From: Desulfobacteraceae bacterium
GTDB lineage: Bacteria; Desulfobacterota; Desulfobacteria; Desulfobacterales; UBA2174
Length of the DNA stretch: 57,540 bases
Reading direction: 5' to 3'
Assembly (NCBI GenBank): GCA_011042305.1
Contig: DQXI01000214.1
Span: 1 to 57,540, forward strand
Shown here: positions 33,168 to 57,100 of the stretch, in pieces
How the letters are laid out: each line of letters starts with the position of its first letter
Position numbering within the stretch: the stretch's first letter is position 1
The notes under the pieces: model-generated
The model's database searches: none
The model's input: only the letters and a program-made list of their open reading frames with translations
Told to the model about the DNA's origin: nothing
Program-made: the position numbers and the translations under genes

Positions 33168-33172
33168 TCGTC

Positions 33173-35554: not shown

Positions 35555-35829
35555 GTCAACTCCTCAGAATGAATCTCGTCTGTGAATACGCGCAACCACC
35601 TGATAACTTAGCGGAAATTTCAGCCACTCGACATGGACCCCAGGGACCGGGAAGACGAGCCGCTGGAAAACACCGGATACCTCCGGCCTCATTCCATCAT
35701 TCCTGACTCCCGACCAGGCCCGGGCCGACTCGATCCGGAAAATCCATGTTCATCGGAACGATGACAGCGGCAAGCCAAACCACCATCTCCGCCCTGGCCA
35801 GGCCGGCAGCCGACGGCAGCGCTCGAATC

Positions 35830-36378: not shown

Positions 36379-38189
36379 CGGTCTTTCGCTTCCTCGATGG
36401 CACCCTTGGGGCAAACCTGGATGCACACGTTGCAGCCGACGCAAAGGATCGGATCGATGTCCACCCGCGTCTTGTCCGCATTCATCACCAGGGCCGGACA
36501 CTCGAAGCGCTCCACGCAGAATCCGCACCCGTCGCAGGCATCAGTGACTGTCGGCGGCGGTCCGGGCGGACGTCCGGTGCGCCGGGCCTCTTCGAGCACG
36601 CACGGATGCCGGGCGATCACCACCGCCGGCCCCGTTTCGCGCGCGTAAGCCAGGGCCTCTTTCACCATTTTGGTAAAAGCCTTCACGTCGTAGGGATCGG
36701 CGATTCGGCAAAAACCGACCCCGCACCCCTTGACCAGGGCCGCGATGTCCACGGCGGCCGTTGTTTCGCCGCACGCCCCGATCCCCGAAGCCGGCGTGGG
36801 CTGATTGCCGGTCATGGCGGTGGTGCGGTTGTCGAGAATCACCAGGACAAAGCGCACCTGCTGCACCACGGCGTCGATGAGGGCCGGCACGCCGGCGTGG
36901 AAGAAGGTCGAATCGCCGATGGTAGCCACCACCGGCGGCGGCTTGGCCGCATGGCGATAGGCCTGGTAGAACCCGGCCGCCTGGCTGATGGCCGCCCCCA
37001 TGCACAGCACGGTGTCCACCGCGCCGAGGTTCAGGCCCAGGGTGTAGCAGCCGATGTCGCTGGTGTAGATCCCCTTGGGCGCCGCCTTGCGGATGGCAAA
37101 GAAGCTGGCCCGGTGGGGGCAGCCCGGGCACAGGGTCGGGCGTCGACCGGGAACGACGGGCAGTTGCGGGACTTCCACGCTGCAGCCGGCAAAGGCGGCG
37201 ATCTGGCTGACGATGGCCTCGGGCAGCAGCTCGCCCACCCGCGGCACGCCGCCGGTCCACTTGCCCCGGGTGCGATGCCGGTCGGCGATCTGCATCTCGA
37301 TGACCCCCACGGTTTCCTCGAGCACGAGGATCTCGTCGTAGTCGGTGATGAGGTGGCCGATGAAATCGGTGTGCAGCGGAAAGGGCTGGCGCACCTGGTA
37401 AAACGGCAGCCCGTCCCACAGTCCCAGGGATTCCAGCGCTTCGCGGGCATGGGCAGCCGCCACCCCCGAGGCCACCACGGCCCGCCGGCCGCCGGCTTTC
37501 GGGTTGTGGCGCACCGGGGCCGTTTCCGGCCAGGCGGCGATCCGGGCCAACTTTTCTTCCAGCTCGCCGTGGAGCTTGAGACGAAACTTGGGCGTGGCGG
37601 CCCAGCGCAACGGATCGCGCTTGAAAGCCGGCTCCCGCCCGGGCAGCACCCCAGCGTCCACGGCCACGTCCTGGCGGCTGTGGCAGACCCGGGTGGTGGG
37701 CCGCAGCATCACCGGTATGCGGAAGGCCTCGGAGAGTTGGTAGGCCATGGCCGTCATGCGCCGGGCCGCCGCGGGAGAGTCCGGGTCCAGGACCGGGATC
37801 TTGGCCATCACGGCCATGAGGCGGCTGTCTTGCTCGGTCTGGGAGGAGTGGGGGCCGGGATCGTCGGCGCTGATAACGACAAATCCGCCCGTTGTCCCCA
37901 TGTAGGCGGCGCTCATCAGCGGATCGCTGGCCACGTTGAGACCCACCTGTTTCATGCTCACCGCGGTGCGCAACCCGGCCTGGGCCCCGGCATAAGCGAT
38001 CTCGAAGGCCACCTTTTCGTTCACCGCCCACTGGACGTGAAGCGGATCGGTGCGCAGGCGGCGCGACTTGGCCACCGCTGCCAGGATTTCCGACGCCGGC
38101 GTGCCCGGGTACCCGGTGGCCAGGCTGACCCCGTTTTCCACCAGGCCCAGGGCCATGGCCTCGTTTCCCATCATCAGTTTGCGTGTCAT
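36375..38189 (-). CDS. iorA: indolepyruvate:ferredoxin oxidoreductase subunit alpha
   Basis: MTRKLMMGNEAMALG start, TPP-binding region (GDSTFFHAG) and a C-terminal 2x[4Fe-4S] (CDGCGFC...CVGCNVCIQVCP). Confidence 0.92.
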   Translation of the reverse strand: MTRKLMMGNEAMALGLVENGVSLATGYPGTPASEILAAVAKSRRLRTDPLHVQWAVNEKVAFEIAYAGAQAGLRTAVSMKQVGLNVASDPLMSAAYMGTTGGFVVISADDPGPHSSQTEQDSRLMAVMAKIPVLDPDSPAAARRMTAMAYQLSEAFRIPVMLRPTTRVCHSRQDVAVDAGVLPGREPAFKRDPLRWAATPKFRLKLHGELEEKLARIAAWPETAPVRHNPKAGGRRAVVASGVAAAHAREALESLGLWDGLPFYQVRQPFPLHTDFIGHLITDYDEILVLEETVGVIEMQIADRHRTRGKWTGGVPRVGELLPEAIVSQIAAFAGCSVEVPQLPVVPGRRPTLCPGCPHRASFFAIRKAAPKGIYTSDIGCYTLGLNLGAVDTVLCMGAAISQAAGFYQAYRHAAKPPPVVATIGDSTFFHAGVPALIDAVVQQVRFVLVILDNRTTAMTGNQPTPASGIGACGETTAAVDIAALVKGCGVGFCRIADPYDVKAFTKMVKEALAYARETGPAVVIARHPCVLEEARRTGRPPGPPPTVTDACDGCGFCVERFECPALVMNADKTRVDIDPILCVGCNVCIQVCPKGAIEEAKDR

Positions 38190-38541
38190 CGTTTTTCCTG
38201 AATTCTTGAGTCTCGAACGCCACCGGCGCCCCTGCAAGGGCGCCGGCGAAAGATTCGACTGCCGCGGCCGCCCGTCGGGACCGGCTGAAGCTGCTCACGG
38301 CATTCTCTTGTAGGTTTATCAGAGGCGGCGAGAAGCTTCAGAGCACCCCCCGCCACCGCCAGCATCGAACCATCATGCTCAATACGCTTTCCAAAAGGGG
38401 ATTCACGTTTCCCACCTGCCATATCCGAGCCGGACAAATTTGTCAAGACAAGTTGACGTATTTTTCCACGCCTTGGCCCCGTTGACATTGCCTCGGCAGA
38501 TAGGGTAGAAAACTCGCAAACCCCATCTCGCGGAGGGTGCG

Positions 38542-39045
38542 ATGGCACACTGCATCCTGCTCAACGCCGACTACTCCTTTCTCAACGTGGTATCCTGGCG
38601 CCGGGCCATGTGCCTGGTGGCCAAGCAGAAGGTTGAAGTCCTCAAGTACTCCGAGCACACGGTGGGTTGCGTGGAAGGGCTGCGCCGGGCCGTGCCGGCC
38701 GTGATGCGGCTGATCAAGCTCATTCGCACCATCTACCGGGCACGCGTACCCTTTTCCAAGCGCAACGTCCTGATCCGCGACCGGTTTCGTTGCGCCTACT
38801 GCGGCAGCGTCGGCGGACGGCTCACCGTCGACCACATCATCCCCCGCTGTCGCGGGGGGCAAACCGATTTCGACAACTGCGTCGCCTGCTGTCCCACCTG
38901 CAATGCCCGCAAGGGGGGCCGCACCCCCACCGAAGCCCGGCTGCACCTCCGGCGGCGACCTTACCAACCCACCATCTCGGAATTCATCCGGCTCAAGTTC
39001 GCCGCCCTGGGGCTAGAATCGGTGCTTGACGAGGTTCTGCTCTAG
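38542..39045 (+). CDS. stand-alone HNH endonuclease
   Basis: RDRFRCAYCG...LTVDHIIPRCRGGQTDFDNCVACCPTCNARKG is the HNH/zinc-finger core, 167 aa. Confidence 0.85.
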   Translation: MAHCILLNADYSFLNVVSWRRAMCLVAKQKVEVLKYSEHTVGCVEGLRRAVPAVMRLIKLIRTIYRARVPFSKRNVLIRDRFRCAYCGSVGGRLTVDHIIPRCRGGQTDFDNCVACCPTCNARKGGRTPTEARLHLRRRPYQPTISEFIRLKFAALGLESVLDEVLL

Positions 39046-40144: not shown

Positions 40145-42826
<2,682 letters not shown>

Positions 42827-42852
42827 TCGGCTTTTTCCGGCCGATGGCCATG

Positions 42853-42877
42853 CGAAATGGGGGGAGCGCCCGCCTTT
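42853..42877 (+). repeat. left copy of the 24/25-nt direct repeat bracketing the lower-GC segment
   Basis: CGAAATGGGGGGAGCGCCCGCCTTT, starting 26 nt after the polA stop. Confidence 0.7.
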
Positions 42878-43340
42878 CTCGCCGAGGCAGGTTTCGAGCG
42901 CCGGCCGGCCGGTGTCACAACGGGCTTTCGCTTGCAGTTCTACCGAGAATGGCCGTCGCCCTGCCCCTTGACTTTTGGCCGAGCCTGTAGCATTTTAAAA
43001 TATTTTACTATGAAAATTGGTTTTCATTGAAAGCAACTATACAGGATTAGGGGAAAAGAGACGAATGGATTGAGCGAGGCGCGGATTTTTCCTTAAACGA
43101 CTGATTCGGGTGTCCTTCAGCCCTGACACAGGGTCCTTTGATGGATCAAATCAAGGGTGCCTTATTCACGATTGGCCCTGGAGTCAAGAATAACGCCCTT
43201 TCACATAAACGATAACGGGCGCTCCACGCGGTGAGGCCCCTTCATTTCCTTCTTTTGTATCCCCACACCCGATCCCTGCCAGATCGTTTCGACCGAAACC
43301 GCCCCTGTCCGTCCTGACCGAGATTTTTGAAGGAACGCAC

Positions 43341-44483
43341 ATGATTCGATATGAATCCGTAACCAAGGTGTATGGGAACGGGAAGGATGCCGTGACCGCC
43401 CTGGACAATGTCAGCCTGGAAATCCAGGCCGGCGAGGTGGTCATCCTGCTCGGACCTTCCGGCTGTGGAAAGACTACGACCCTGAGGCTGACCAACCGGC
43501 TCGAGACCCTGACCCGGGGCACGATCACCATCAACGGCCAAGACATCATGCAGGTCGACGCGGTCAAGCTCAGGCAGAAGATCGGGTATGTCATCCAGGA
43601 AATCGGTCTCTTTCCGAACAAGACCATCGCGGAGAACGTGGCCGTGGTCCCCAAGCTTTTGGGCTGGAGCGAGGAAAGGATCCGCGAAAGGGTGGACGAG
43701 CTTCTCTGGATGACCAACCTCGACCCGCGGACCTACCGGGACCGGTATCCGGCTGAACTCTCCGGGGGACAGCAGCAACGGGTCGGAGTGGCCCGGGGGC
43801 TAGCGGCCGATCCGAACATCCTCCTCATGGATGAACCCTTCGGGGCCATCGATCCGATCAACCGCGAGCAGATTCAGGATGAGTTTCTCCGCCTTCAGGC
43901 GAAACTGAAAAAGACCGTCGTCTTTGTTTCCCACGACATCCACGAGGCCATCAAGATGGGGGACAGAATCGCCCTCTTCGATAAGGGCAGGCTGATTCAG
44001 TACGACACCCCGGAGGCGATCCTGACCCAGCCCAAAAACAAATTCGTGGCCGATTTCGTGGGGGCCGACCGGGCCCTAAAAGTTCTGGGGCTCATCCGGA
44101 CCGGGGACATCATGAACCGGTCTCCCAAGAACCTGCTGCGGATGACGGATCAGGCCCAAGATGTGCTGAAGTTTATGGACTCGAAGAAATTCCATTACGG
44201 CATCGTCCTGAACGGCGGCAAACCCATGGGCTATGTAACCAACAGAACCCTCAAGTATGAGCAGGGGCCGATCCGTGATCTGGTGGAAACATACCCCTGC
44301 CTGGTGGAAGAAAAGCGGAACCTGCGCGATGTGCTTTCCATGATGTTGATGTACAACCTCATGACCCTTTGCGTCGTGGACGATAACGGCGACTTTATCG
44401 GTACCGTCTCCTACAACGACATCCAGAAGGCCATCAAGGAAAGCTACACAGACGAGGCCGAACGAAACGGCGAGGGAGAGTGA
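43341..44483 (+). CDS. osmoprotectant (glycine betaine/choline-type) ABC transporter ATP-binding protein with tandem CBS domains
   Basis: Walker A GPSGCGKTT, signature LSGGQQQRV, Walker B LLMDEPF, and a C-terminal CBS pair (OpuCA/OsmV architecture). Confidence 0.9.
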   Translation: MIRYESVTKVYGNGKDAVTALDNVSLEIQAGEVVILLGPSGCGKTTTLRLTNRLETLTRGTITINGQDIMQVDAVKLRQKIGYVIQEIGLFPNKTIAENVAVVPKLLGWSEERIRERVDELLWMTNLDPRTYRDRYPAELSGGQQQRVGVARGLAADPNILLMDEPFGAIDPINREQIQDEFLRLQAKLKKTVVFVSHDIHEAIKMGDRIALFDKGRLIQYDTPEAILTQPKNKFVADFVGADRALKVLGLIRTGDIMNRSPKNLLRMTDQAQDVLKFMDSKKFHYGIVLNGGKPMGYVTNRTLKYEQGPIRDLVETYPCLVEEKRNLRDVLSMMLMYNLMTLCVVDDNGDFIGTVSYNDIQKAIKESYTDEAERNGEGE

Positions 44484-44486
44484 GCC

Positions 44487-45155
44487 ATGAGCACCCTTTG
44501 CTTCATCTCGGAAAACATGGAGCGGGTCCTTTACCTCACCTGGGAGCACATCTGGATCGTCGGGAGTTCCCTGGTCATCGCCATGATCATCGGCATCCCC
44601 CTCGGGGTCCTGATCACCAGGCACAAAAACCTGGCCCAGCGGGTGCTAAACACGGCCAACGTGCTGATGACCATCCCTTCCATCGCGCTTTTCGGAATCA
44701 TGCTCCCGATTCTGGCGGTCATGGGGTTCGGACTCGGAAAGCTGCCGGCCGTCATCGCCCTGGTGCTCTACAGCCAGCTTCCCATCATCCGCAATACGTA
44801 TACGGCCATCCTGAACGTCCCCCCGGCGGTCACCGATGCCGGCAGGGGTATGGGAATGAACCGATGGCGGTTGCTCCGGGAGGTGGAGATTCCCCTCGCC
44901 GTTCCCGTGATCCTGGCCGGACTGAGGACGGCTGCGGTGATGAACATCGGAATCGCCGCCATCGCGGCCTATATCGGAGCGGGGGGACTAGGGGTGCTGA
45001 TCTCCCAGGGGATCAGCCGGACATACGAGGAGATGATCATCGCGGGCGCCGTCCTGGTGTCGCTGCTGGCGATCATCGTAGACGGGGCCATGGCCTTGCT
45101 GGAACGCTGGGTCACGCCCCGGGGCCTTCAGGTCCAGAGGAGGCAGAACGGATGA
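44487..45155 (+). CDS. osmoprotectant ABC transporter permease
   Basis: 222 aa, BPD-type permease with the EAA-like loop (DAGRGMGMNRWRLLREVEIPLA). Confidence 0.9.
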   Translation: MSTLCFISENMERVLYLTWEHIWIVGSSLVIAMIIGIPLGVLITRHKNLAQRVLNTANVLMTIPSIALFGIMLPILAVMGFGLGKLPAVIALVLYSQLPIIRNTYTAILNVPPAVTDAGRGMGMNRWRLLREVEIPLAVPVILAGLRTAAVMNIGIAAIAAYIGAGGLGVLISQGISRTYEEMIIAGAVLVSLLAIIVDGAMALLERWVTPRGLQVQRRQNG

Positions 45156-45883
45156 GCCGTCTTTTGAGCCAAGTCTATCGGTTCCTCTTGATGCTGGTCC
45201 TTCTCTGCGCCGGGGTCATGGCCGAGAGGACGGGCCTTGTCCAGTACCTCTCGGACCCCTACGAATACCCGTACATCCTGTCCCGGCTCTGGGAACACGT
45301 CTGCATCGTCGGCGAGAGCATGTCCATTGCCACGGCCATCGGCGTCATCGCCGGCATCCTGCTGACCCGGAGCCGATTCAGGCGCTACGCCGGGATCGTG
45401 ATGTACATCATCAGCCTGGGGCAGACGATTCCTTCCCTGGCCGTGCTTGCACTGGCCATGAGTTTTCTGGGCATCGGCAGCGGGCCCGCCGTATTCGCCC
45501 TGACCGTCTATTCGATCCTGCCGATCGCCAGAAACACCCTGGCCGGCATCACCAACGTTCCGCCCCACCTCACCGATGCGGCGCGGGGCATGGGGATGCC
45601 CCCGGCGCGGATTCTTCTCGAAATCGAGATCCCCAACGCCATGAAAATCATCATCACGGGTTTTCGGATCGCTCTGATTATCAACATCGGCACCGTGGCC
45701 CTGGCCTATCTGATCGGTGCCGGCGGCATGGGCGATCTCATCTTTACGGGAATCGAGGTCATGATGACCGCAAAGCTCCTCGCAGGAGCGATCCCCGTAA
45801 CCATCATGGCCCTGATCGCCGACTTTTGTTGCGGTCTTCTGGAGTTGCTCCTGGTCCCCAAGGGGCTCCGGCTGAACGGATAA
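45152..45883 (+). CDS. osmoprotectant ABC transporter permease (second subunit)
   Basis: ATG 45152 forms an ATGA overlap. The EAA-like loop DAARGMGMPPARILLEIEIPNA is paralogous to the previous gene. Confidence 0.88.
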   Translation: MSRLLSQVYRFLLMLVLLCAGVMAERTGLVQYLSDPYEYPYILSRLWEHVCIVGESMSIATAIGVIAGILLTRSRFRRYAGIVMYIISLGQTIPSLAVLALAMSFLGIGSGPAVFALTVYSILPIARNTLAGITNVPPHLTDAARGMGMPPARILLEIEIPNAMKIIITGFRIALIINIGTVALAYLIGAGGMGDLIFTGIEVMMTAKLLAGAIPVTIMALIADFCCGLLELLLVPKGLRLNG

Positions 45884-45938
45884 AACTGTTTTCCAGAGGC
45901 GGTCCGGGTCAAACAAACTTCATTCAGGAGGTGTTACC

Positions 45939-46844
45939 TTGAAACGATCTTTGCTCAGCGCCGTTGTCCTCATTTCCGTTCTGGCCCTGATTCCGGGCAA
46001 TGTCCTTGCCGAAAAGAAACTGGTGGTGGGGGGCAAGAACTATACGGAACAGTACCTTCTGCCACAGCTCGGAGCCCTGTTGCTGGAGCAGGCCGGTTTC
46101 CAGGTCACGGTCAAAACCGGGGTCGGAAGCAAGCTCCTTCGCCAGTCGCTTGAAAACGGCATGGTGGATCTCTACTTCGAATACACCGGAACCGCCTATG
46201 CCATCTTCTTCAAGGGCAAGGACCGCGCCGTGATGACCAACCCTGAAAAGATATTCGAATTCTGCCGCCAGCAGGACGAGAAAAACGGTCTGGTCTGGCT
46301 GGACCGGTTCCATTTCAACAACACCTATACCCTCATGTTGAGAGAGGCGGATTCCAAAAGACTCGGGATCGTCTCGATTTCGGATCTGGCAGACTACGTG
46401 AACAACAATCCCAAGGCCCTCATCTTCGCCATGAAGGCCGAGGACTGGGAACGGCCCGATGCCTTCAAGGGCATCATGAAGACCTACGGCTTCAAGGTCC
46501 CTCCGGCCAACGTGAAGAAGATGGATTACGGGCTGACGTATATGGCCATGAAGAAAAAAAAGGCGGACTGCGCCTTCGGTTACGCCACGGACGGCCGCGT
46601 CGCAGCCTTTCATTTCGTCAACCTGGTCGACGACAAGAATTTCTTTCCCGTCTACAACCCCGCCCCGGTGGTTCGCAAGGACACGCTGGATCGATATCCG
46701 CAGATCGCAGAGATTCTGCGGCCCCTGACCCAGGCCGTCACGACCCGGGAGATGCAGGAGATGAACGCGGCCGTGGCCATCGAGCACCGGCCCGATGTCG
46801 AGGTGGCCAGGGACTATCTCAAGAAGAAGGGACTTCTCAAATAG
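45939..46844 (+). CDS. osmoprotectant (glycine betaine family) substrate-binding protein
   Basis: TTG start 6 nt after CAGGAGGTG, signal peptide MKRSLLSAVVLISVLALIPGNVLA, and an OpuCC/OsmX-like body. Confidence 0.85.
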   Translation: MKRSLLSAVVLISVLALIPGNVLAEKKLVVGGKNYTEQYLLPQLGALLLEQAGFQVTVKTGVGSKLLRQSLENGMVDLYFEYTGTAYAIFFKGKDRAVMTNPEKIFEFCRQQDEKNGLVWLDRFHFNNTYTLMLREADSKRLGIVSISDLADYVNNNPKALIFAMKAEDWERPDAFKGIMKTYGFKVPPANVKKMDYGLTYMAMKKKKADCAFGYATDGRVAAFHFVNLVDDKNFFPVYNPAPVVRKDTLDRYPQIAEILRPLTQAVTTREMQEMNAAVAIEHRPDVEVARDYLKKKGLLK

Positions 46845-47244
46845 CCGGGCGCCCCTCTTTGCCGGTGTGCCCGAATGGATGTCTATCCCTCCATGCGGCG
46901 CCGGCGGTATCCCCCCCGCCGGCGCCTATGAAGCGGCCGCAACCCGTGCACACGGACACAGCGCTTCATGGGAGGGACGAGGATTTGTAACTCAGCAACT
47001 CAACTTTCCGAATTCAGATTGGACACTTGGGGGCCGGACTGCAGAAAACGATAGATTATCGGCATGTTATTCTCTCGGCAATCCAAAGTTCTGGCCCCAG
47101 ACAAAGGGTGGCATGTACGATCCGACGACTTACGTACCTGAGACAGATCGCCATACAAAGATAAAGACCAACAATAACAGGCCTATATAAAAATTCAGAC
47201 GGGTACGCAAATAATTTCTTGGCATACCCATAGAGCGCCTGTGT

Positions 47245-47280
47245 CCTCCTTTCACATTTCAAACCTAATGTGAAAGGAGG
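47245..47280. repeat. perfect 13-bp inverted repeat (hairpin) in an AT-rich spacer
   Basis: CCTCCTTTCACAT (47245-47257), a 10-nt loop, then ATGTGAAAGGAGG (47268-47280). It is followed by a second small GGAG/CTCC hairpin. Confidence 0.6.
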
Positions 47281-47317
47281 GGCCCTCCCCTAAAATCCCC
47301 ACATTAAACATTGTTTA

Positions 47318-47346
47318 TTGACACGAACGCCATTTCCGCCTAAACT
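47318..47346 (+). promoter_or_regulatory. candidate sigma70 promoter of the MerR/acyl-CoA operon (TTGACA-17 nt-TAAACT)
   Basis: TTGACA at 47318-47323, a 17-nt spacer, TAAACT at 47341-47346, located 24 nt upstream of the ATG at 47370. Confidence 0.5.
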
Positions 47347-47349
47347 TCC

Positions 47350-47363
47350 AGTTAACGTTAACT
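47350..47363. promoter_or_regulatory. 14-bp perfect palindrome, candidate operator
   Basis: AGTTAACGTTAACT is its own reverse complement. It lies between the -10 and the start codon of the MerR-family gene. Confidence 0.45.
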
Positions 47364-47369
47364 AGAAGA

Positions 47370-47783
47370 ATGCGAGCCTGCATGAGCCGAGACGACTCCT
47401 GGACCATCAGCGAACTGGCCGACCAACTGGACATCAGTGCCCGATCCATCCGTTTTTACGAGGAAAAAGGTCTGATCAGCCCCCAGCGCACCCCCGGCGG
47501 ACACCGGGTGTACACCCGCCGGGACCGCGCCCGCATGCGCCTGATCCTGCGGGGCAAGCGCTTCGGCTACAGCCTGGACGAAATCGCCGAGATGATCGGC
47601 ATGGCCGACGTGGACATGGACGAGGCGGACCAGATCCGCAAGTCTCTGGAATACGGCGAGAAAAAGCTGAGAGAGCTGGCCCAACGCAAGGAGGAGATCT
47701 CGGCCATGGAGGCGGATTTGGAGGCGGTGCGACAGAAGATGCTGGAGCGCCTGAAACAACTCGAAGGAACGGGGAAACAATAG
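47370..47783 (+). CDS. MerR-family transcriptional regulator
   Basis: WTISELADQLDISARSIRFYEEKGLI HTH, followed by a coiled-coil C-terminus, 137 aa (or 133 aa from ATG 47382). Confidence 0.88.
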   Translation: MRACMSRDDSWTISELADQLDISARSIRFYEEKGLISPQRTPGGHRVYTRRDRARMRLILRGKRFGYSLDEIAEMIGMADVDMDEADQIRKSLEYGEKKLRELAQRKEEISAMEADLEAVRQKMLERLKQLEGTGKQ

Positions 47784-47792
47784 GGGTGAGCT

Positions 47793-49292
<1,500 letters not shown>

Positions 49293-49322
49293 GCGGAAAA
49301 GCGCGGGCAAAGGAGAAAAGCA

Positions 49323-50567
49323 ATGCACGACATGCTGGTAAAACCAGAGCAAAAGCAGATCATTCAGGAGGTGCGGGATTTTGTTAAAACCATCCCCCGC
49401 CAGATGATCCTGGACATGGACGCCGACAAGATCAAGTTTCCTACCGAGTTTTTGCGGGAAGCGGGCAAACGCAACCTTTTGGGCTGCCGCTATCCCAAGC
49501 AGTGGGGCGGCCGCGATCTTGACTGGCCCACCACCTGCGCGGTGATGGAGGAAGTGGGCACCCTGGGCTATATCTTCGCCTGCACCTTCGGCGTGGGGGC
49601 CGAACTGGTCTGCGACGCCATTGTCCTGCACGGCACGGACGAGCAAAAAGAAAAGTACGTCAAGCCGCTGTTGGCCGGCGACATGTTCGCCGCCGAGTGC
49701 CTTACCGAACCACGGGGCGGCAGCGACTTTTTCGGCACATCCACCACGGCCGAGGACAAGGGCGACTATTTTCTGGTCAACGGCCAGAAGCGCTTTATCG
49801 TGGGCGCCGAAGGGGCCGACTACTTCCTGGTCTACGCCAAGACCGACTTCAGCCCCGACGCCCATCCTCACAAGGCCCTGACCTGCCTGATCGTGGACCG
49901 GGGGCCGGGCGTAAACGTGGAATACCTCTACGGCCTGATGGGCTGCCGGGGCGGCGGCGCGGGCCGCATCGTTTTCAAGGACGTCAAGGTGCCCAAGGAA
50001 AATATCGTCGGCAAGCTCAACAACGCCTATGCCGTGTTCAACACCATGATGATCCCCGAACGCCTGGGCACGGCGGCCATGACCATCGGCGCGGCCCGCC
50101 CGGCCGTGGAGATCGCCACGGGCTACTCCACCCGGCGCAAGGCCTTCGGCCAGCCCATCGCCCAGTTCCAGGGCGTGAGCTTTCAGATCAGCGAAGCGGT
50201 GATGCTCATGGATGTCTGTCGCTCCATGGCCTTTACCACGGCCACGGCCGTGGAAAATCCGGACGTGCCCAGGGCCAGGGTCCGCAGGCTGGTCTCGGAA
50301 ACCAAGAAATTCATCACCGAGTCATGCCAAAAGGCCGCCCGCAACGCCATGCAGGTCATGGGCGGCATAGGCTACACCAATGTTTTCCCCATTGAGCGCA
50401 TTGTGCGTGATCTGGGCCTGGCCTCCATCTGGACCGGGTCCAACGAGGTGATGAGCCTGATCATCGCCCATGAGTGGTACAAGGAGTATTTCGCCTCCAA
50501 GGCGGCCAGGGATCATGAGGATGATGCCGAGGAGAGCCGGGCCCCGGATGAGAAGATCTATGAGTAG
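49323..50567 (+). CDS. acyl-CoA dehydrogenase
   Basis: 414 aa with CLTEPRGGSD, the C-terminal QVMGGIGYT block and the catalytic region IWTGSNEVM. Confidence 0.9.
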   Translation: MHDMLVKPEQKQIIQEVRDFVKTIPRQMILDMDADKIKFPTEFLREAGKRNLLGCRYPKQWGGRDLDWPTTCAVMEEVGTLGYIFACTFGVGAELVCDAIVLHGTDEQKEKYVKPLLAGDMFAAECLTEPRGGSDFFGTSTTAEDKGDYFLVNGQKRFIVGAEGADYFLVYAKTDFSPDAHPHKALTCLIVDRGPGVNVEYLYGLMGCRGGGAGRIVFKDVKVPKENIVGKLNNAYAVFNTMMIPERLGTAAMTIGAARPAVEIATGYSTRRKAFGQPIAQFQGVSFQISEAVMLMDVCRSMAFTTATAVENPDVPRARVRRLVSETKKFITESCQKAARNAMQVMGGIGYTNVFPIERIVRDLGLASIWTGSNEVMSLIIAHEWYKEYFASKAARDHEDDAEESRAPDEKIYE

Positions 50568-50674
50568 ATAGATTGCTAAAATAGCCGCAGTTACGAGCCG
50601 CTTCGGTGCTATGCCGGGGCGGCAACAAGTGGATTTAAAGTCGCCGCGACTCCCGAAAAGCGAGTTCCTGTCTT

Positions 50675-50698
50675 CGAAATGGGGGAGCGCCCGCCTTT
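50675..50698 (+). repeat. right copy of the direct repeat
   Basis: CGAAATGGGGGAGCGCCCGCCTTT is identical to 42853-42877 except for one fewer G. It ends 31 nt before the stop codon of the convergent sigma54-activator gene. Confidence 0.7.
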
Positions 50699-50729
50699 TT
50701 CCGGTCCGACTCGCGAATGCGGAAACCTT

Positions 50730-52298
50730 TCATTTCAGGTCGATACGCTTTTTGTGTGGGCGGCCGAAGGCGATCCCGAGCTTGCGCATGCGCCCCCTCA
50801 GGGTGCTCGGATGCAGCCCGAGCAGTTCGGCGGCGCCGTTCTTGCCCTCCACCCGCCCCCCGGTTTTGTCCAGCACCCGGCGGATATGGGCCGCCATCAC
50901 AGCATCCAGGCTTTCCACCGGACCGCCCGCCTTGCCAGGGCGGCCGCTGTCAGCGCCCGCCGGCCCGGCGGGCAGGTCGTCGAAGGTCAGCAGTCCGTCG
51001 CGCCCGGCGAACTGGCTCTGGAGAAGGGCCCGTTCCACCAGGTTTTCCAGCTCGCGCACGTTTCCCGGCCAGTGGTAGGCCTGCAGGCGCTCCAGGGCGC
51101 CGGGGGCCAGCGACGGCATGGTGCCGATTTTGAGCTCGCGCGATTTGCGCTCGATGAAATGGCGCACCAGGGCCGGGATGTCGTCAATGCGCCGGCGCAG
51201 GGGCGGAATCGTGATGGGCAGAACGTTGAGCCGGAACCAGAGGTCCTCCCGGAAGGCACCCGACTGCACCAAGGATTCCAGGTTGCGGTGGGTGGCGCTG
51301 ACGATGCGCACGTCCACCGGCACCGGCGCGGTGCCGCCGACCCGTTCGATGACCTGCTGCTGGACCACCCGCAGCAGGCGCACCTGGGCCTGGGGGGGCA
51401 GCTCCCCGATTTCGTCGAGAAAGATGGTTCCGCTGTGGGCCCGCTCGAAGCGTCCCCGCTTGCGGGCGATGGCACCGGTGAAGGCGCCTTTCTCGTGACC
51501 GAACAACTCGCTGTCGATGAGCGCTTCGGGGATGGCGCCGCAGTTGACCGCGATGTAGGGGTTGCCTCTGCGCGGGGAGGAGAAATGGAGCGCGTTAGCG
51601 ATGAGTTCCTTGCCCACCCCGGTCTCCCCCATCAGCAGCACCGGGCTGTTGAGCGGCGCCACCTGGCGCACCATCTCCATCACCTCGCGCAAGCCGAAAT
51701 CGGCGCCGATGATGGTGTCGCCGGTCATCTGGCTCATCTGCCGGTGCAGGTAGCGGTTGTCGTCGGCCAGCATATCCTTGAGCCGCAAGATTTCCTCGTG
51801 CTGGAGCATGTTGGAGATGGCCACGGCGATGGGTTCGTGCAGCAGCGAAAGCCAGCGGGCGTGCTCCGGCCGGTAGCGGTACCGGCCGGGGGCGAAGAGA
51901 ATGAAACGCCCCAGGCGCCGGGCCTCCAGCTCCAGGTCCATCGAAAGCACCGACGTGTCGGGGGGCCACAGGACGGCGAAAAGCTGCCGGGATTCGGGCG
52001 GCTCCAGCGCGACGTCGTTGACCATGCGCACCTGGGCGTCCTCCTCCCAGTTTTTCCTGAGAAAATCCCGGAACTCCCTCGGCGGTGAGAGAAAATCCCC
52101 CGGCTTGGGCAGGTCGTCCGGCCAGATGTAGGCCAGCATGCGCCCCAGGTGCAGGTCGGGATCGTAGAGGGCGAAAAACATGCCCGAGATGGGAATAAAA
52201 TCCTTGATGTAGTCAAAAAAATACCGCATCGCCGTGTCGATGTTCAAACTGCTGGAAATGCGCAGGGTCGCCTGCCGGAAAAATTCGTTTTCGTCCAA
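50730..52298 (-). CDS. sigma54-dependent transcriptional activator with an N-terminal GAF-like sensor domain
   Basis: AAA+ core GETGVGKELIANALH and the GAFTGA loop (EKGAFTGA), with a C-terminal Fis-type HTH (AAELLGLHPSTLRGRMRKLGI). Confidence 0.93.
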   Translation of the reverse strand: MDENEFFRQATLRISSSLNIDTAMRYFFDYIKDFIPISGMFFALYDPDLHLGRMLAYIWPDDLPKPGDFLSPPREFRDFLRKNWEEDAQVRMVNDVALEPPESRQLFAVLWPPDTSVLSMDLELEARRLGRFILFAPGRYRYRPEHARWLSLLHEPIAVAISNMLQHEEILRLKDMLADDNRYLHRQMSQMTGDTIIGADFGLREVMEMVRQVAPLNSPVLLMGETGVGKELIANALHFSSPRRGNPYIAVNCGAIPEALIDSELFGHEKGAFTGAIARKRGRFERAHSGTIFLDEIGELPPQAQVRLLRVVQQQVIERVGGTAPVPVDVRIVSATHRNLESLVQSGAFREDLWFRLNVLPITIPPLRRRIDDIPALVRHFIERKSRELKIGTMPSLAPGALERLQAYHWPGNVRELENLVERALLQSQFAGRDGLLTFDDLPAGPAGADSGRPGKAGGPVESLDAVMAAHIRRVLDKTGGRVEGKNGAAELLGLHPSTLRGRMRKLGIAFGRPHKKRIDLK

Positions 52299-52554: not shown

Positions 52555-52570
52555 CGGCACGATTTCTGCT
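52555..52570 (+). promoter_or_regulatory. sigma54 (-24/-12) promoter
   Basis: CGGCACGATTTCTGCT versus consensus TGGCACG-N4-TTGCW. GG is at 52556-52557 and GC at 52568-52569, exactly 10 nt apart, 51 nt upstream of ATG 52621. Confidence 0.6.
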
Positions 52571-52620: not shown

Positions 52621-52932
52621 ATGGACTGGATTGAACTGATACATCTACGCACCGCATCCGATGCCGATCGGGATGCGGCCTTGGCCGCCTTCGAGCAGCT
52701 CTCCTGGGCTGACCGGGAAAGCGATCTGAAGGAAATCAAGCTGCTGCGAAACTGCGCCCTCACGTTGGATCTGAGCCTGCTGATCGTCTGGCGCAGCCGG
52801 GTCTGTCCCAACGCCAAGAGCCCGCTGGGACTTCGCCTGGCGGCGGCGTTTTCGGACTTCGGCCAGATCAACCATTCCGTCTGGGACTGCGCGTCCAGCG
52901 TCGATGTCACGAGACAGGAGTCGACCCCATGA
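52621..52932 (+). CDS. hypothetical 103-aa protein, first gene of the RND efflux operon
   Basis: GGAG lies 7 nt upstream of the ATG, and there is an ATGA overlap with the adaptor gene. There is no signal peptide or TM segment, and I recognise no family. Confidence 0.5.
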   Translation: MDWIELIHLRTASDADRDAALAAFEQLSWADRESDLKEIKLLRNCALTLDLSLLIVWRSRVCPNAKSPLGLRLAAAFSDFGQINHSVWDCASSVDVTRQESTP

Positions 52933-54143
52933 AAAGAAAATTGACCGGCACAAATCCGATACCCGGTATTGCCACGCTCCTAATCGCCGGCTTGCTGCTG
53001 TGCGGCGGCTGCCAGGAGCAAAAGGGACAGACCGCCCCGCCGAGGCGAACGCCCGAGGTGGCCACGGTAACGGTCTCCCCGCAGAGAGTTGAGCTGACCA
53101 CCGAGCTGCCGGGCCGCACCTCGGCCTTCCGCATCGCCGAAATCCGGCCCCAGGTCAACGGCCTGATCCTCAAGCGGCTCTTCGAGGAAGGCGCGGACGT
53201 CAAAGAGGGGCAGCTTCTCTACCGCATCGATCCGGTCCCCTTCCAGGTGGCCCTTAATTCGGCCCAAGCCTCCCTTGGCAAGGCCCGGGCCAACCTGCCG
53301 GCGATTCAATCCCGGGCCGCGCGCTACCACGAGTTACTGGCGGACAGGGCCGTCAGCCAGCAGGACTACGATGATGCCGCCGCCGCCGTCGAGCAGGTCA
53401 AGGCCGAGATCGAATACTGGAAAGCCCAGGTTGAAGCCGCCCGCATCAACCTGAACTACACCCGCGTTGTCGCTCCCTTTGACGGGCGCATCGGCCGCAG
53501 CCACGTCCGCGAGGGAACCCTGGTAACCGCTTACCAGCCCCAGTCTTTGGCCACCTTGCAGCAGATCGACCCCATCTACGTGGACGTGGTGCAGTCATCG
53601 GCCGAGTTGCTGCGCCTCAGGCGCCGGATTGAGGCTGGCCGCCTCAGCCCGGACGGCCAGGACCGCAACAAGGTCCGCATTCTCCTGGAAGACGGGACGC
53701 CTTACGAGCTGCCGGGCAGGTTGCAGTTCGCCGACGTGACGGTGGACCCGGCCACCGGCTCCTACTCCCTGCGCATCGTGGTGCCCAACCCGGATCACGT
53801 CCTGCTGCCGGGCATGTACGTGCGCGCCTTGGTCCAGGAGGGCGTCTCCGAAAAGGCCATTCTCGTCACCCAGCAGGGAGTGAGCCGCAACACCAAGGGC
53901 GAACCCGTCGCCCTGGTTGTAGATGAATCCGGCACTGTCCAGCCGCGCCTGCTGGTCCTGGATCGGGCCATCGGCAACCAGTGGCTGGTGGCCTCGGGCC
54001 TGGCGCCCGGAGACCGGGTCATCGTCGAAGGAATGCTCAATATTCGGCCCGGGATGACGGTAAACGCCGTCGACTTCGAAGCCGGACGGAATTCCGCAAC
54101 CGTTTCCCGAACCGGCGGCACGGCCGCGGCGCCGAAGCAGTAA
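52929..54143 (+). CDS. RND efflux periplasmic adaptor subunit (membrane fusion protein)
   Basis: Lipobox LLLCGGC and AcrA/MexA-like blocks (EIRPQVNGLI, YRIDP, YTRVVAPFDGRIG). Confidence 0.93.
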   Translation: MKRKLTGTNPIPGIATLLIAGLLLCGGCQEQKGQTAPPRRTPEVATVTVSPQRVELTTELPGRTSAFRIAEIRPQVNGLILKRLFEEGADVKEGQLLYRIDPVPFQVALNSAQASLGKARANLPAIQSRAARYHELLADRAVSQQDYDDAAAAVEQVKAEIEYWKAQVEAARINLNYTRVVAPFDGRIGRSHVREGTLVTAYQPQSLATLQQIDPIYVDVVQSSAELLRLRRRIEAGRLSPDGQDRNKVRILLEDGTPYELPGRLQFADVTVDPATGSYSLRIVVPNPDHVLLPGMYVRALVQEGVSEKAILVTQQGVSRNTKGEPVALVVDESGTVQPRLLVLDRAIGNQWLVASGLAPGDRVIVEGMLNIRPGMTVNAVDFEAGRNSATVSRTGGTAAAPKQ

Positions 54144-54155
54144 CGGAGGCTTGCC

Positions 54156-57100
54156 ATGCTGTCGAAATTCTTCCTGGACCGCCCGGTTTTCGCCTGGGTC
54201 ATCGCCATCATCATGATGCTGGCCGGCGGCCTGGCGATCTACAACATGCCCATCTCCCAGTACCCGCCCATCGCCCCGCCGTCGATTGCCATCGACGCCT
54301 ACTATCCCGGCGCCTCGGCGGAGACGGTGGAAAACAGCGTCATCCAGATCATCGAGCAAAAGATGACCGGCTTCGACCGGCTGCTCTACATGACCGCCAC
54401 CAGCGACGGCTCCGGCGCCGGCCGCATCGAGCTGACCTTCGCCCCCGGCACGGACCCGGATTTTGCCTGGTCCCAGGTGCAAAACAAGCTCCAGCTCGCC
54501 ATGGCCAGCCTGCCGGACGTCATCCAGCGCCAGGGCGTCAAGGTGAGCAAGTCGACCCGCAACTGGCTGATCATCGTGGGGTTAATCTCCGAGGACGGCA
54601 GCCTGAGCGGCACGGACCTGCGCGACTATGCCCAGAGCAACATCGAGAAAGTGCTGGCCCGGGTCCCGGGGGTGGGAGAGGTGGAAAGCTTCGGCGGCCA
54701 GTACGCCATGCGCGTGTGGCTGGACCCGGACAAGCTCACCGACTACCGGCTGACCATCGAGGATGTCATCGCCGCCCTGCGGGCCTACAACGTGGAAATC
54801 TCCGCCGGCCAGTTCGGCGGAGCGCCGGCGGTGAAGGGCCAGCGGCTCAACGCCTCGATCATCGTCCAGAACCTGCTCCAGACGCCGGAAGAGTTCGCCG
54901 CCATCCCCTTGCGCATCAACAGCGACGGCTCGGTAGTGCGCGTCAGCGATGTGGGCCGCACCGAGCTGGGCACCGAGCGCTACGACGTGGAAGCGCTCTT
55001 CAACGGCAAGTCGTGCGCCGCCCTGGCGGTGCGGCAGGCCGCCGGGGCCAATGCCCTGGACACCGCCGACGCCGTGCGGGCCAAGATGAAAGAATTGTCG
55101 GAGTACTTTCCGCCCGGGGTCAAGGTGATCTACCCCTACGATACCACCCCCTTCATCAAGGTGGCCATCGACGAGGTGGTCAAGACCTTGTTCGAGGCCA
55201 TTTTCCTTGTCTTCCTGGTGATGTTCCTCTTCCTGGGGAACATCCGCGCCACCTTGATTCCCACCCTGGCGGTGCCGGTGGTAATCCTGGGCACCTTCGC
55301 CGTGCTGGGTTTTTTCGGCTACTCCATCAACATGCTCACCATGTTCGCCATGGTCTTGGCCATCGGTTTGCTGGTGGACGACGCTATCGTGGTGGTGGAA
55401 AACGTGGAACGGATCATTCACGAAGAGAAGCTGCCGCCCAAGGAGGCCACCGCCAAGTCCATGAAACAGATCACCAGCGCCCTGGTGGGCATCGGTCTGG
55501 TGCTGGCGGCGGTCTTCGGTCCCATGGCTTTCTTCGGCGGGTCCACCGGGGTGATCTACCGGCAGTTTTCCGTCACCGTGATCTCGGCCATGCTGCTGTC
55601 GGTGGTGGTGGCATTGATTCTCACCCCGGTGCTCTGCGCCTCGCTGTTGCGGTCTTTCGACGACCGCGTGGACGCCAAGCGGCGCGACGTGCCCCTGCTG
55701 CGGCCGATCGTGTACGCCTCCAACCGCTTTTTTCTCGCCTTCAACCGCAGCTTCAACTGGCTGCGGAGCAAGTACGCCGGCGCGGTGGGCAAGATCCTGG
55801 GGCGCCGTCTGCGCTACCTGATCATCTATGTGCTCATCGTGGCGGCCCTCGGCTACCTGTTCCAGCGCATGCCCACCGCCTACCTGCCCAACGAAGACCA
55901 GGGGTCCATGTTCATCCAGGCGCAGCTTCCCTCCGGCTCGACCCTGGAGCAGACCCAGGCGGTGTTGGACGAGGTCCGCGCTTACTTTGAAGAAGAGGAA
56001 AAGGAGGCGGTGGCGTCGGTCCTCACGCTGGCCGGCCGGGGCTTCGGCGGCAGCGGCCAGAACACGGGCCTGGGTTTCGTCCGGCTCAAAGACTGGGAGC
56101 TGCGCGACCGGCCGGACCTGAAGGTGTGGGCCGTGGCCAACCGCGCCATGGCCCGCTTTGCCAGGATCCGCAATGCCCGGGTCTTCGCCTTCGCCCCGCC
56201 GGCGGTCACGGAGCTGGGCACCTCGGCGGGGTTCGACTTCCAGTTGCAGGACCGCGGCGGCATCGGCCACCAGAAGCTGATGGAAGCCCGCAACCAACTG
56301 CTGGGCATGGCCGCCGCCGATGATCGGCTCACCCGGGTGCGGCCCAACGGGATGGAGGACGTGGCCCAGTACCGTATCGACGTGGACTGGGAGCGGGCCG
56401 GCGCCCTGGGGGTGCCGATCAATTCGATCCACAACACCATCTCGGCCGCCTTCGGCGGCGCCTACGTCAACGACTTCATCCAGGGCGGTCGGGTCAAACG
56501 CGTCTATGTCCAGGCGGACGCCCCCCACCGCATGCTGCCCACGGACCTGGAAAATCTCTACGTGCGCAACAGCCAGGGAACCATGACCCCGTTTACCGCC
56601 TTCGCTTCGGGCTACTGGGACTACGGTTCGCCGCGGCTGGAACGCTTCAACGCCTTTCCGTCGATGAACATCCTCGGCGAGGCGTCGCAGGGCCGCAGCA
56701 CCGGCGAAGCCATGGCCGCCATGGAAGAGATCGTCGCCAAGCTGCCCGAGGGGGTCAGCTTCGACTGGAGCGGCATCTCCTACCAGGAGCGCATGGCCAA
56801 GCGCCAAACGGGGCTGCTCTACGCCTTTTCCATGATCGTGATCTTTTTGTGCCTGGCGGCCTTGTATGAAAGCTGGACCGTGCCCATCTCCGTCATGCTG
56901 GCCCTGCCTTTGGGGGTCATCGGCGGGGTGGCCGCCTCGATGCTGCGCAGTTTCCCCAACGACGTTTACTTTCAGATCGGTCTGCTCACCGTGCTGGGGC
57001 TGACCACCAAGAACGCCATCCTCATCGTCCAGTTCGCCATGGGCCAAGTCAAGGAGGGCAAGGGGCTCGTGGAGGCGACCCTCGAAGGGGCCAGGCTGCG

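Follow-up and report, generated by a model that had tools for sequence, protein, structure and literature searches.

Genomic islets are small genomic islands of under 10 kb, and in the Xer-dependent IMEX elements and in plasmid dif modules the cargo lies between short recombination sites and is moved by a recombinase that is encoded elsewhere. Transposons and IS composites are characterized by terminal inverted repeats, a transposase and a target duplication of 2-14 bp. Integron cassettes have attC sites for recombination and lie near an intI/attI platform, and dif-like XerC/XerD sites enclose Xer/dif modules. HGT hotspots, which lie between conserved core genes and lack mobile-element genes, were described by Oliveira, Touchon and Rocha in 2017 (PMC5635113), and CIMEs, the cis-mobilizable elements, derive by decay from ICEs or IMEs, with attL and attR retained and the genes of integration and transfer lost (PMC5704250).

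Here, we analysed a stretch of 57.5 kb (the window) from the genome of an uncultured Desulfobacteraceae species, in which a 7.8-kb segment between polA and the gene of a sigma-54 activator carries seven cargo genes of transporter and fatty-acid type, in two modules (Table 1). As it stands, this locus is an ordinary gene-exchange hotspot of a known type: as at HGT hotspots, the same two genes bound the gap across the clade, its content varies, neither an integrase nor a transposase is found and a replication/repair gene is its neighbour. It differs from these hotspots by a 24/25-nt direct repeat that the flanking-recombination model does not predict, and the comparison made here is between species-level lineages from metagenomes rather than between strains of one species. 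With CIMEs, it shares direct repeats at the ends, an interior free of recombination and transfer genes and adaptive cargo, but the polA locus is not known to host a related ICE or IME that uses the same att site, the repeat starts 26 nt past polA instead of lying in the 3' end of a target gene, and the flanks next to the repeat are common to relatives with different cargo. The segment also resembles genomic islets, being small, lineage-specific, compositionally deviant and flanked by direct repeats, with accessory metabolic and transport genes; unlike them, it has no tRNA target or mobility gene, its GC3 and codon usage are near those of the host, and it consists of two separately derived operons. 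IMEX and dif modules likewise hold cargo (often toxin-antitoxin or accessory genes) between short recombination sites, whereas the 24-mer of this locus is G/C-rich and not dif-like, and there is no sign of a replication-terminus location.

We favour, with moderate confidence, the reading that the segment is accessory DNA in a gene-turnover hotspot between the convergent polA and activator genes, that it is not self-mobile and that it is made of at least two pieces of separate ancestry. The locus would then be a clear example, in uncultured relatives of sulfate reducers, of accessory genes gathering in one gap without on-site mobile machinery.

Table 1. Features of the locus, in positions of the window; related loci are designated by L numbers
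Feature	Position	Strand	Basis or remark
polA, DNA polymerase I, 893 aa, left anchor	40145..42826	+	Pfam 5_3_exonuc_N, 5_3_exonuc, DNA_pol_A_exo1, DNA_pol_A
Left flank, small hairpin ATCGGC..GCCGAT directly past polA stop	42827..42852	+	alignments, fold
Left repeat copy, within conserved polA 3' flank	42853..42877	+	L092 orthologue
30 nt right of left repeat copy	42878..42907	+	28/30 identical to L092
Non-coding leader before ABC operon	42908..43329	+	unique; no homologue in any fetched locus
ABC module, OpuC/OsmU-type osmoprotectant transporter	43330..46844	+	Pfam, NCBIfam; TIGR01186 proV above cutoff
ProV-type ATPase with CBS domains	43341-44483	+	Pfam and NCBIfam
Permeases, two	44487-45155 and 45152-45883	+	Pfam and NCBIfam
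OpuAC/OsmF-type binding protein	45939-46844	+	Pfam and NCBIfam; closest solved structures OsmF, ProX
AT-richer inter-module spacer	46845..47280	+	ends in perfect 14-bp-stem hairpin, 47245-47280
MerR module	47281..50622	+	L093 and L094 match it at 93% nt identity across precisely this span
Promoter-like TTGACA-17-TAAACT of MerR module	47318-47346	+	sequence
24-nt palindrome, possible operator	47345-47368	+	sequence
MerR regulator	47370-47783	+	Pfam and NCBIfam
AMP-forming acyl-CoA ligase	47793-49292	+	Pfam and NCBIfam
Acyl-CoA dehydrogenase	49323-50567	+	Pfam and NCBIfam
MerR-module terminator stem	50597-50623	+	no T-tract in window
52 nt between terminator stem and right repeat copy	50623..50674	+	alignments
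Right repeat copy	50675..50698	+	last ~9 nt (CCGCCTTT..) within activator flank common to L092
Right flank, right copy to activator stop	50699..50729	+	26/27 identical to L092 over CCGCCTTTTTCCGGTCCGACTCGCGA
GAF / sigma-54-interaction / HTH_8 activator, 522 aa, right anchor	50730..52298	-	Pfam

Cargo modules, their ancestry and composition

Pfam and NCBIfam searches bore out the gene content that an earlier note on this DNA had proposed, that is seven cargo genes in an OpuC-type module and a module of MerR regulator, ligase and dehydrogenase, and the 525-nt spacer that it placed between the two was found at 46845-47369. The leader in front of the ABC operon gave no Rfam match and contains an inverted copy of the 10-nt core of the repeat (43216-43225), and no Pfam domain was found in the largest ORF of the spacer at 46845-47280.

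By ancestry, the segment is not a single unit: the cargo is composite, and its modules differ in their nearest relatives, in their divergence and in their composition. The nearest relatives of the ABC module (L097-L100) have ~80% nucleotide identity to it, at a dS of 0.8-1.1, and lie in other contexts in genomes of ~50% GC. The MerR module has a dS of only 0.19-0.29 to its relatives, and in L093 and L094 it follows LamB, CT_C_D and two lactamase_B genes, a context unlike that of the window.

The GC content is 57.3% in the ABC module and 60.7% in the MerR module, compared with 65.5% in the rest of the window (63.7% in polA and 65.6% in the activator gene); the lower GC that had been noticed is thus real, while its size (52-57% versus 67-73%) had been overstated. 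The median gene GC is 0.612 for the cargo and 0.657 for the other genes (p = 3e-7), a difference that arises mostly at codon positions 1 and 2. More A/T-ending codons had also been claimed, and this proved to be only slightly the case (GC3 of 0.82 versus 0.85, p = 0.04), the codon-usage distance of the cargo showing no significant difference from that of other genes (p = 0.07). The tetranucleotide frequencies of the ABC module correlate with those of the rest of the window at 0.77 and those of the MerR module at 0.92, versus 0.94-0.98 for ordinary 4-kb chunks.

The window contains no tRNA or tmRNA. No integrase or transposase was detected among the ORFs tested in the segment and in the window at 1-28 kb and 30-52.8 kb, in keeping with the earlier observation that recombinase, transposase and tRNA are all missing from the segment. 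Pfam searches found no integration or transfer gene among the seven cargo genes and the largest spacer ORF, smaller spacer ORFs being judged by their translations only, and integrase, relaxase and conjugation genes are missing both from the site in the 10 related loci and from the window ORFs tested.

Several classes of element fit the locus poorly. For a transposon or IS composite, there is no transposase and no inverted repeat between the end spacers, and the duplication measures 24-28 nt. For a classical island at a tRNA or tmRNA gene with an integrase, neither was found, although the lineage-specific presence of the segment does fit. For a Xer/dif module, the window has no dif match within 3 mismatches of the E. 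coli-type core, from which the dif site of this lineage may differ, and for an integron cassette, there is no tyrosine-recombinase gene among the window ORFs scanned.

The gap between polA and the activator gene in related genomes

The cargo is absent from 10 of the 10 related loci that were fetched, which represent eight or nine lineages with polA orthologues that are 80-92% identical; activator orthologues are 89-93% identical. The gap lies between polA and the activator gene in the window as well as in L004, L085, L086, L089, L090, L091, L092 and L101, a count that leaves out L087 and L088, where the activator lies beyond the sequence. Including the 7.8-kb cargo, the gap content takes five or six states: a spacer of 23 nt (L101 and L004), a spacer of ~310 nt that consists of a dispersed repeat (L085, L089, L090), two RHH-PIN toxin-antitoxin pairs (L086, L091), one RHH gene with a 68-aa ORF that we read as a truncated PIN with no Pfam hit on record (L092), and FitA-PIN followed by another gene (L087, L088). 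The convergent polA and activator genes are 23 nt apart in L101 (polA 92% identical) and in UBA2174 (88%). The presence of other cargo in the same gap of relatives points to a hotspot rather than to the landing site of one element.

These comparisons support the reading of the segment as inserted DNA, as had been proposed from the sequence, the segment being lineage-specific and its site unoccupied in close relatives. Within the host species, the 7.8-kb block appears to be fixed in the sampled population: three further assemblies of that species, each from another sample, also have it (in one of them only as far as the contig end, at ~46914), with 8-14 SNPs per 17-23 kb relative to the window. 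It is highly improbable that the segment is instead an ancestral one that the relatives have lost, for instance when its two repeat copies recombined: even if such recombination would remove exactly this block, and even if the GC3 of the cargo is near that of the host, independent losses would be needed in all eight or nine lineages, outgroup included, and none of these lineages retains the repeat scar. The ABC module is moreover compositionally atypical, and the MerR module occupies another locus in other genomes.

Considering the segment as accessory DNA of a hotspot, we infer that DNA may enter or leave the gap when related genomes recombine within the conserved flanking genes, or through illegitimate or short-homology joins in the gap itself, and gap turnover would not require an element-encoded recombinase. 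The polA tree is star-like, with the window nested among the related lineages. The last ~10 activator codons vary by site type, and both the C-terminal alleles of the activator (GRPHKKRIDLK versus GRRRTAG type) and the flank types are discordant with this tree, which is consistent with an exchange of the entire gap via recombination in the flanking genes. The present content would correspond to two operons joined by spacers, of which the MerR-controlled one would have brought its own promoter and terminator stem.

The direct repeat at the segment edges

The direct repeat that had been described at the segment edges was confirmed, coordinates included. Its left copy (CGAAATGGGGGGAGCGCCCGCCTTT) has 25 nt with six G and begins 26 nt past the polA stop codon (42824-42826), and its right copy (CGAAATGGGGGAGCGCCCGCCTTT) has 24 nt with five G and ends 31 nt before the activator stop codon (50730-50732). 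The copies differ by one G within the G-run, and the matching stretch can be lengthened to 27/28 nt (to 42880 on the left and 50701 on the right). A search for other copies of the 24-mer, as had been suggested, found only these two within the window, both at segment edges, and a further ~1.3 Mb of Desulfobacterales loci that were fetched lack the core. As a sequence match by itself, the pair is unremarkable: its exact core without gaps measures 18 nt, within the 15-19 nt of Markov simulations, and the score of the pair in a self-BLAST of the whole window (42) is tied with those of three or four short intragenic repeats. The boundary spacers aligned to each other score 44; shuffles average 17.7 and reach 27 at most. 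The repeat is significant because it is positioned at both edges of an indel that is independently defined by the relatives.

The copies had been taken for clean junctions of the segment; instead, flank homology in relatives passes through or into both of them. On the polA side, the flank at 42827-42852 is common to L092 and L087 and absent in empty-site relatives, and homology to L092 covers 79 nt at 89.9% identity, through the left copy (whose L092 orthologue, GCGAAATGGGGGGTCGCCGGCCTTT, is 21/25 identical) and up to 42907. The 30 nt that follow the left copy are therefore not specific to the cargo of the window, being homologous in L092. L087, which is more distant than L092, has a further short motif (GGTGTCACA) in common with the window, near 42910-42922. 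Over these two relatives, the conserved polA flank thus takes in the left copy and 30-45 nt past it. On the activator side, homology with L092 begins within the right copy, at ~50690. Two repeat copies occur together in none of the 10 related loci, and the 24-mer was not found in the 23-nt spacers of L004 and L101 or in the ~310-nt spacers of L085 and L089. An empty site with a single repeat copy, which the earlier note had anticipated, and an 81-nt ancestral spacer were likewise not found among the relatives. Because of this flank homology, the repeat does not delimit the cargo; since its left copy lies in the polA 3' flank of two relatives with other cargo and its right copy overlaps the activator flank, it brackets the hotspot, not the present cargo. 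A lesson for annotation is that a direct repeat together with a GC dip is insufficient to establish an integrative element.

A decayed element of the CIME type could nonetheless be envisaged, in which a core of ~24 nt past polA was duplicated as attL and attR, the integrase was lost, the cargo was possibly swapped and mobilisation in trans might still take place. The near-identical 24/25-nt repeat at both edges, its imperfect dyad symmetry (typical of recombinase core sites) and the lack of mobility genes within the segment would all fit such an element, as would L092, where other cargo stands behind the same left copy and 30-nt arm (28/30), like in related elements that share an end. Toxin-antitoxin pairs, which are common stabilisers of integrated elements, are found at the site in relatives, and tandem accretion and decay at att sites are documented (PMC5704250). 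We nevertheless consider this origin rather unlikely: no ICE, IME, prophage or integrase is at the site in the 10 related loci, the core is found in no empty site and in none of the further ~1.3 Mb of fetched loci, two copies together occur in no relative, remnants of conjugation or integration genes were not found, and the two modules differ in ancestry. Were the 7.8 kb excised as a whole by site-specific recombination, the junction would read ...CCTGTCTT-repeat-CTCGCCGAGG...

That the 24-mer acts as the core site in a cassette-exchange locus without a recombinase of its own is quite unlikely; in such a locus, a chromosomal recombinase encoded elsewhere would swap unrelated cargo and the 30-nt arm would be the conserved end of a cassette family. 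The cargo would in that case comprise toxin-antitoxin pairs, a small dispersed repeat, and transport and metabolic operons. If a recombinase supplied in trans does use the repeat, the locus would be a natural cassette-exchange site.

The two copies might also be functional sites, either bidirectional terminator hairpins or binding sites of one regulator, that are kept alike by selection or gene conversion. Their hairpins are no more stable than those of shuffles (z = -0.8 and +1.0), a terminator scan calls neither of them, the L092 orthologue alters the stem without compensation, the MerR module has a strong terminator stem of its own, and the relatives with 23-nt spacers do without the motif, which makes such a role very unlikely; polA would in that case use one copy, and the cargo or the activator gene the other. 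In its favour, each copy can form a G/C hairpin between AAA and TTT, both lie 3' of units on the + strand (26 nt past polA and 107 nt past the dehydrogenase gene), and the 10-nt core occurs thrice in the window, counting the inverted copy in the leader, versus 0.73 expected, each time in a spacer of the segment.

Within the favoured reading of a gene-turnover hotspot, an insertion, whether the latest or one before it, most likely left the repeat as the scar of a duplication; this duplication may have been att-like, and may perhaps date from an older insertion. The repeat may also serve as a substrate by which the 7.8 kb is lost precisely, with a spacer of 81 nt being left.

As an observation against the hotspot explanation, a plain double crossover in the flanks does not predict a near-perfect repeat of 24-28 nt, and an extra event is needed. 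The two copies in the window are also more alike (one indel) than are the left copy and its L092 orthologue (four differences), as would be expected if the duplication were recent and linked to the present cargo, in a weak test with about p = 0.07 as estimated at the observed non-coding divergence.

States of the polA-activator interval

The best-supported reading of the 7.8-kb segment is that of a mobile-element-free hotspot of gene turnover between two conserved convergent genes, polA and a sigma-54 activator gene, which in the window holds two operons. Hotspots of such a kind have been described by Oliveira et al. (PMC5635113), and the locus resembles them in showing gene turnover without mobile elements. 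The absence of a recombinase and of a tRNA, reported in the earlier note, was borne out: no tRNA was found, no integrase or transposase was found in the tested ORFs (segment, spacers, window 1-28 kb and 30-52.8 kb), and no recombinase remnants were seen in the segment spacers.

The window comes from an uncultured species in the Desulfobacteraceae, as a contig assembled from a metagenome; this species is present in samples ENA ERZ27248386, JGI 3300022552 and JGI 3300021484. The segment appears to be fixed in the window species, whose polA is present on nine contigs, with all members of its own polA cluster at least 99.4% identical. The three same-species places that we fetched, from three other samples, differ from the window by 8-14 SNPs per 17-23 kb; two carry the whole segment with both repeat copies, and the third stops at ~46914, past the binding-protein gene. 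Among the matches, ENA/NCBI sources contributed no polA at least 88% identical besides that of UBA2174.

Relatives were retrieved via polA and the activator, and the segment was absent from all ten related loci fetched. The interval measures 23 nt in the closest of them (L101, GCA_036353395.1; polA 92% identical) and in L004 (UBA2174; 88%), and it holds ~310 nt of non-coding DNA in L085, L089 and L090 (about 90%), two RHH-PIN toxin-antitoxin pairs in L086 and L091 (89-90%), one RHH gene and a 68-aa ORF without a Pfam match, read as a truncated PIN, in L092 (91%), and a FitA-PIN followed by a different gene in L087 and L088 (80%). Two loci considered as outgroups (L005 and L006; polA 74%) were uninformative, having other genes downstream of polA. 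Cargo-free sites, which the earlier note had proposed to look for at this junction, were thus found in relatives, but the single repeat copy expected there was not: no empty site has one copy, and none of the relatives has two.

These states bear on two other explanations. A decayed integrative element keeping attL and attR (a CIME; PMC5704250), which would account for a block edged by a repeat, stays in play as a less likely alternative. Two expectations that define such an element failed, however: relatives show no cognate element at this site, and their empty sites show no single copy of the core. Alternatively, the segment could be ancestral and lost in relatives; since polA gives a star-like, radiating tree within which the window is nested, this would take many independent deletions, all of them without a scar.

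The ~310-nt filler of L085 and L089 corresponds to a dispersed intergenic repeat of ~200 nt that is also present in the window (see table); CCCCGGG..CCCGGGG and CCGGAT..GTCCGG form its conserved hairpins. No Rfam family matched this repeat, which could be either a MITE-like element or a gene for a small RNA. Because this filler is a dispersed repeat found elsewhere, the interval looks like a general sink for incoming DNA.

Coordinates of features in the window and, where a locus is named, in comparison loci
Feature	Position	Remarks
Left repeat copy, CGAAATGGGGGGAGCGCCCGCCTTT	42853-42877	26 nt past the polA stop
Right repeat copy, CGAAATGGGGGAGCGCCCGCCTTT	50675-50698	31 nt ahead of the convergent activator stop
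Inverted 10-nt repeat core, GGAGCGCCCG	43216-43225 (- strand)	within the unique ABC-operon leader
Match to left copy, L084	2682-2706 (- strand)	within a DUF4838-domain CDS
ProV-family ATPase with CBS domains	43341-44483	Pfam, NCBIfam
Two permeases	44487-45155, 45152-45883	Pfam, NCBIfam
OpuAC/OsmF-type binding protein	45939-46844	Pfam, NCBIfam; nearest solved structures OsmF, ProX
MerR regulator	47370-47783	Pfam, NCBIfam
AMP-forming acyl-CoA ligase	47793-49292	Pfam, NCBIfam
Acyl-CoA dehydrogenase	49323-50567	Pfam, NCBIfam; nearest solved relatives CarC, medium-chain and butyryl-CoA dehydrogenases
Dispersed ~200-nt repeat, window	35575-35773	between PaaK-like ligase and POR genes
Dispersed ~200-nt repeat, L085	5028-5235	
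Dispersed ~200-nt repeat, L089	12761-12961 and 9696-10039 (- strand)	in the polA-activator interval, and twice in tandem upstream of polA
DctPQM	31372-34195	
PaaK-like ligase	34250-35554	
POR/IOR	35830-38237	
HNH	38542-39045	
Sigma-54-like promoter, CGGCACGATTTCTGCT	52555-52570 (+)	upstream of a 103-aa ORF and the RND efflux operon
RND efflux operon	MFP 52929-54143, pump 54156-57311	divergent from the activator

The direct repeat and the edges of the cargo

The 24/25-nt direct repeat at the segment edges had been described correctly, in its sequence as in both positions. One G within a G-run is all that sets the two copies apart, their match can be extended to 27/28 nt, and no further copy exists in the window when up to four edits are permitted. 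Alignment of the two boundary spacers gave a score of 44 (shuffle mean 17.7, shuffle maximum 27). The exact ungapped core is 18 nt long, window Markov simulations reach 15-19 nt by chance, and a self-comparison of the whole window places the pair level with three or four other short intragenic repeats, so that the repeat is meaningful because of its location and not through its length alone.

A metagenome scan for the 24-mer, in a collection evidently without the source contigs, returned one match, 25 nt identical to the left copy on an unrelated mid-GC metagenome contig (L084). We estimate the chance expectation for a match of this type at roughly 0.002-0.01, and it is probably a coincidence. 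Apart from this contig, the remaining ~1.3 Mb of loci that we fetched do not contain the 15-nt repeat core. The 10-nt core of the repeat occurs three times in the window (0.73 expected), always within segment spacers and with its third copy inverted, which hints faintly at a candidate binding motif.

Several readings of the repeat were rejected. Taken as a terminator, it shows folds that do not surpass those of shuffles, and no call was made in the terminator scan; as a known RNA, no known family matched in the segment or the window. A sigma-54 promoter inside the repeat was discarded, the spacing being judged inconsistent between the two copies, and the cargo spacers contain no sigma-54-like matches. 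No dif-like sequence was found, nor any terminal inverted repeats between the end spacers, another scan having covered the inside of each spacer only.

Comparison with L092, the locus with the putative truncated PIN, indicates where homology stops. On the left side, homology runs from the polA stop through the left copy and on for 30 nt (CTCGCCGAGGCAGGTTTCGAGCGCCGGCCG) to 42907, giving 79 nt in all at 90% identity, with the L092 left copy 21/25 identical; L087 has the first part of this flank in common, together with a short motif near 42910-42922. On the right side, homology with L092 starts within the right copy, at ~50690, where CCGCCTTTTTCCGGTCCGACTCGCGA matches 26/27, and the 68-aa ORF lies immediately upstream of this start. 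Both L092 and L087 carry cargo other than the window's. From these alignments, the repeat does not delimit the cargo; it is most likely a duplication scar that brackets the hotspot.

Two histories fit this scar. In one, an older insertion made both copies and the inner cargo was replaced later in the window lineage, while in L092 a deletion removed a portion of the PIN gene together with the beginning of the right copy. In the other, the right copy is recent and was made with the present cargo through recombination at the short sequence. The latter is slightly favored, since the window's two copies resemble each other more closely than its left copy resembles that of L092, although this argument weighs only about p = 0.07 at ~10% non-coding divergence, by our own estimate. 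Recombination between the two copies could cause precise loss of the block, with a predicted 81-nt site holding one copy as the result; the deletion product would read ...GGCCGATGGCCATG-CGAAATGGGGG(G)AGCGCCCGCCTTT-TTCCGGTCCGACTCGCG... and the circle junction upon excision ...GAGTTCCTGTCTT-CGAAATGGGGG(G)AGCGCCCGCCTTT-CTCGCCGAGGCAGG...

The variable region extends into the activator's last ~10 codons: its tail reads GRPHKKRIDLK in the window, with related forms in L092, L086 and L091, and of GRRRTAG type in the empty and 310-nt types, a distribution discordant with the polA tree. In the relatives with two toxin-antitoxin pairs, the polA stop is directly adjoined by TGGGCTTGACA (L086 8254-8270, L091 2798-2815). 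Their flank looks as if an L087-like flank (12683-12795) had lost ~100 nt between two of its T(C/G)GGCTT microrepeats, and this apparent deletion suggests that short repeats drive deletions in the interval. Two further proposed homologies were dropped: that of the window left leader (42926-43329) with the relatives' toxin-antitoxin promoters, where the alignment was unconvincing, and that of the window right flank with the L087 polA flank, a match by eye that was not significant.

Two pieces of cargo

Pfam and NCBIfam confirmed the gene content proposed earlier, an OpuC-type transporter and a MerR regulator with an acyl-CoA ligase and an acyl-CoA dehydrogenase. The reported drop in GC is real, but its hand-counted size was too large, with 57.3% in the ABC (transporter) module and 60.7% in the MerR module against 65.5% elsewhere. 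Gene GC is lower in the cargo (median 0.612 vs 0.657, p = 3e-7), chiefly at codon positions 1 and 2; GC3 is 0.82 vs 0.85 (p = 0.04), and codon-usage distance shows no significant difference (p = 0.07). When tetranucleotides are correlated with those of the remaining window, the ABC module reaches 0.77 and the MerR module 0.92, compared to 0.94-0.98 for ordinary 4-kb chunks.

The MerR module (window 47281-50622), which includes its own promoter, a 24-nt palindrome and a terminator stem, is 93% identical in DNA and 94-98% in protein to L093/L094, where it comes after LamB/YcsF, CT_C_D/CT_A_B and two lactamase_B genes. Its dS against these loci is 0.19-0.29, somewhat lower than what separates window and congeners at polA, the activator and the efflux gene (0.30-0.52). 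The ABC module (43330-46843) has its nearest relatives at ~80% nucleotide identity and a dS of 0.8-1.1, on contigs of ~50% GC with different neighbors. The cargo is composite, made of two operons of separate origin. No homologues of 42908-43329, 46845-47280 or 50623-50689 were found in any sequence compared. A plasmid origin was rejected: the only matches were distant ones (68%) with same-family ABC transporters, and no close plasmid relative was found.

In L093 (11342-18678), an IS3-family transposase lies directly past the MerR-module terminator stem and two phage-type integrase genes come next, so that the module borders mobile DNA there. Separately, the same-species contig that stops short (L003, JGI 3300021484) ends in the AT-richer inter-module spacer, a break for which low coverage or heterogeneous strains at the point where the modules join might account.

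Neighborhood of the segment

Synteny with all congeners ends just upstream of a cupin gene, at window ~39285. Upstream the window has DctPQM, PaaK-like ligase, POR/IOR and HNH genes, and the relatives have chorismate synthase, aminotransferase, prephenate dehydrogenase and LysE at the equivalent place. This place, ~1 kb upstream of polA and beside the stand-alone HNH endonuclease gene that the relatives lack, is a second boundary of rearrangement or insertion. On the other side of the segment, a sigma-54-like promoter precedes the RND efflux operon, which is probably the activator's target.
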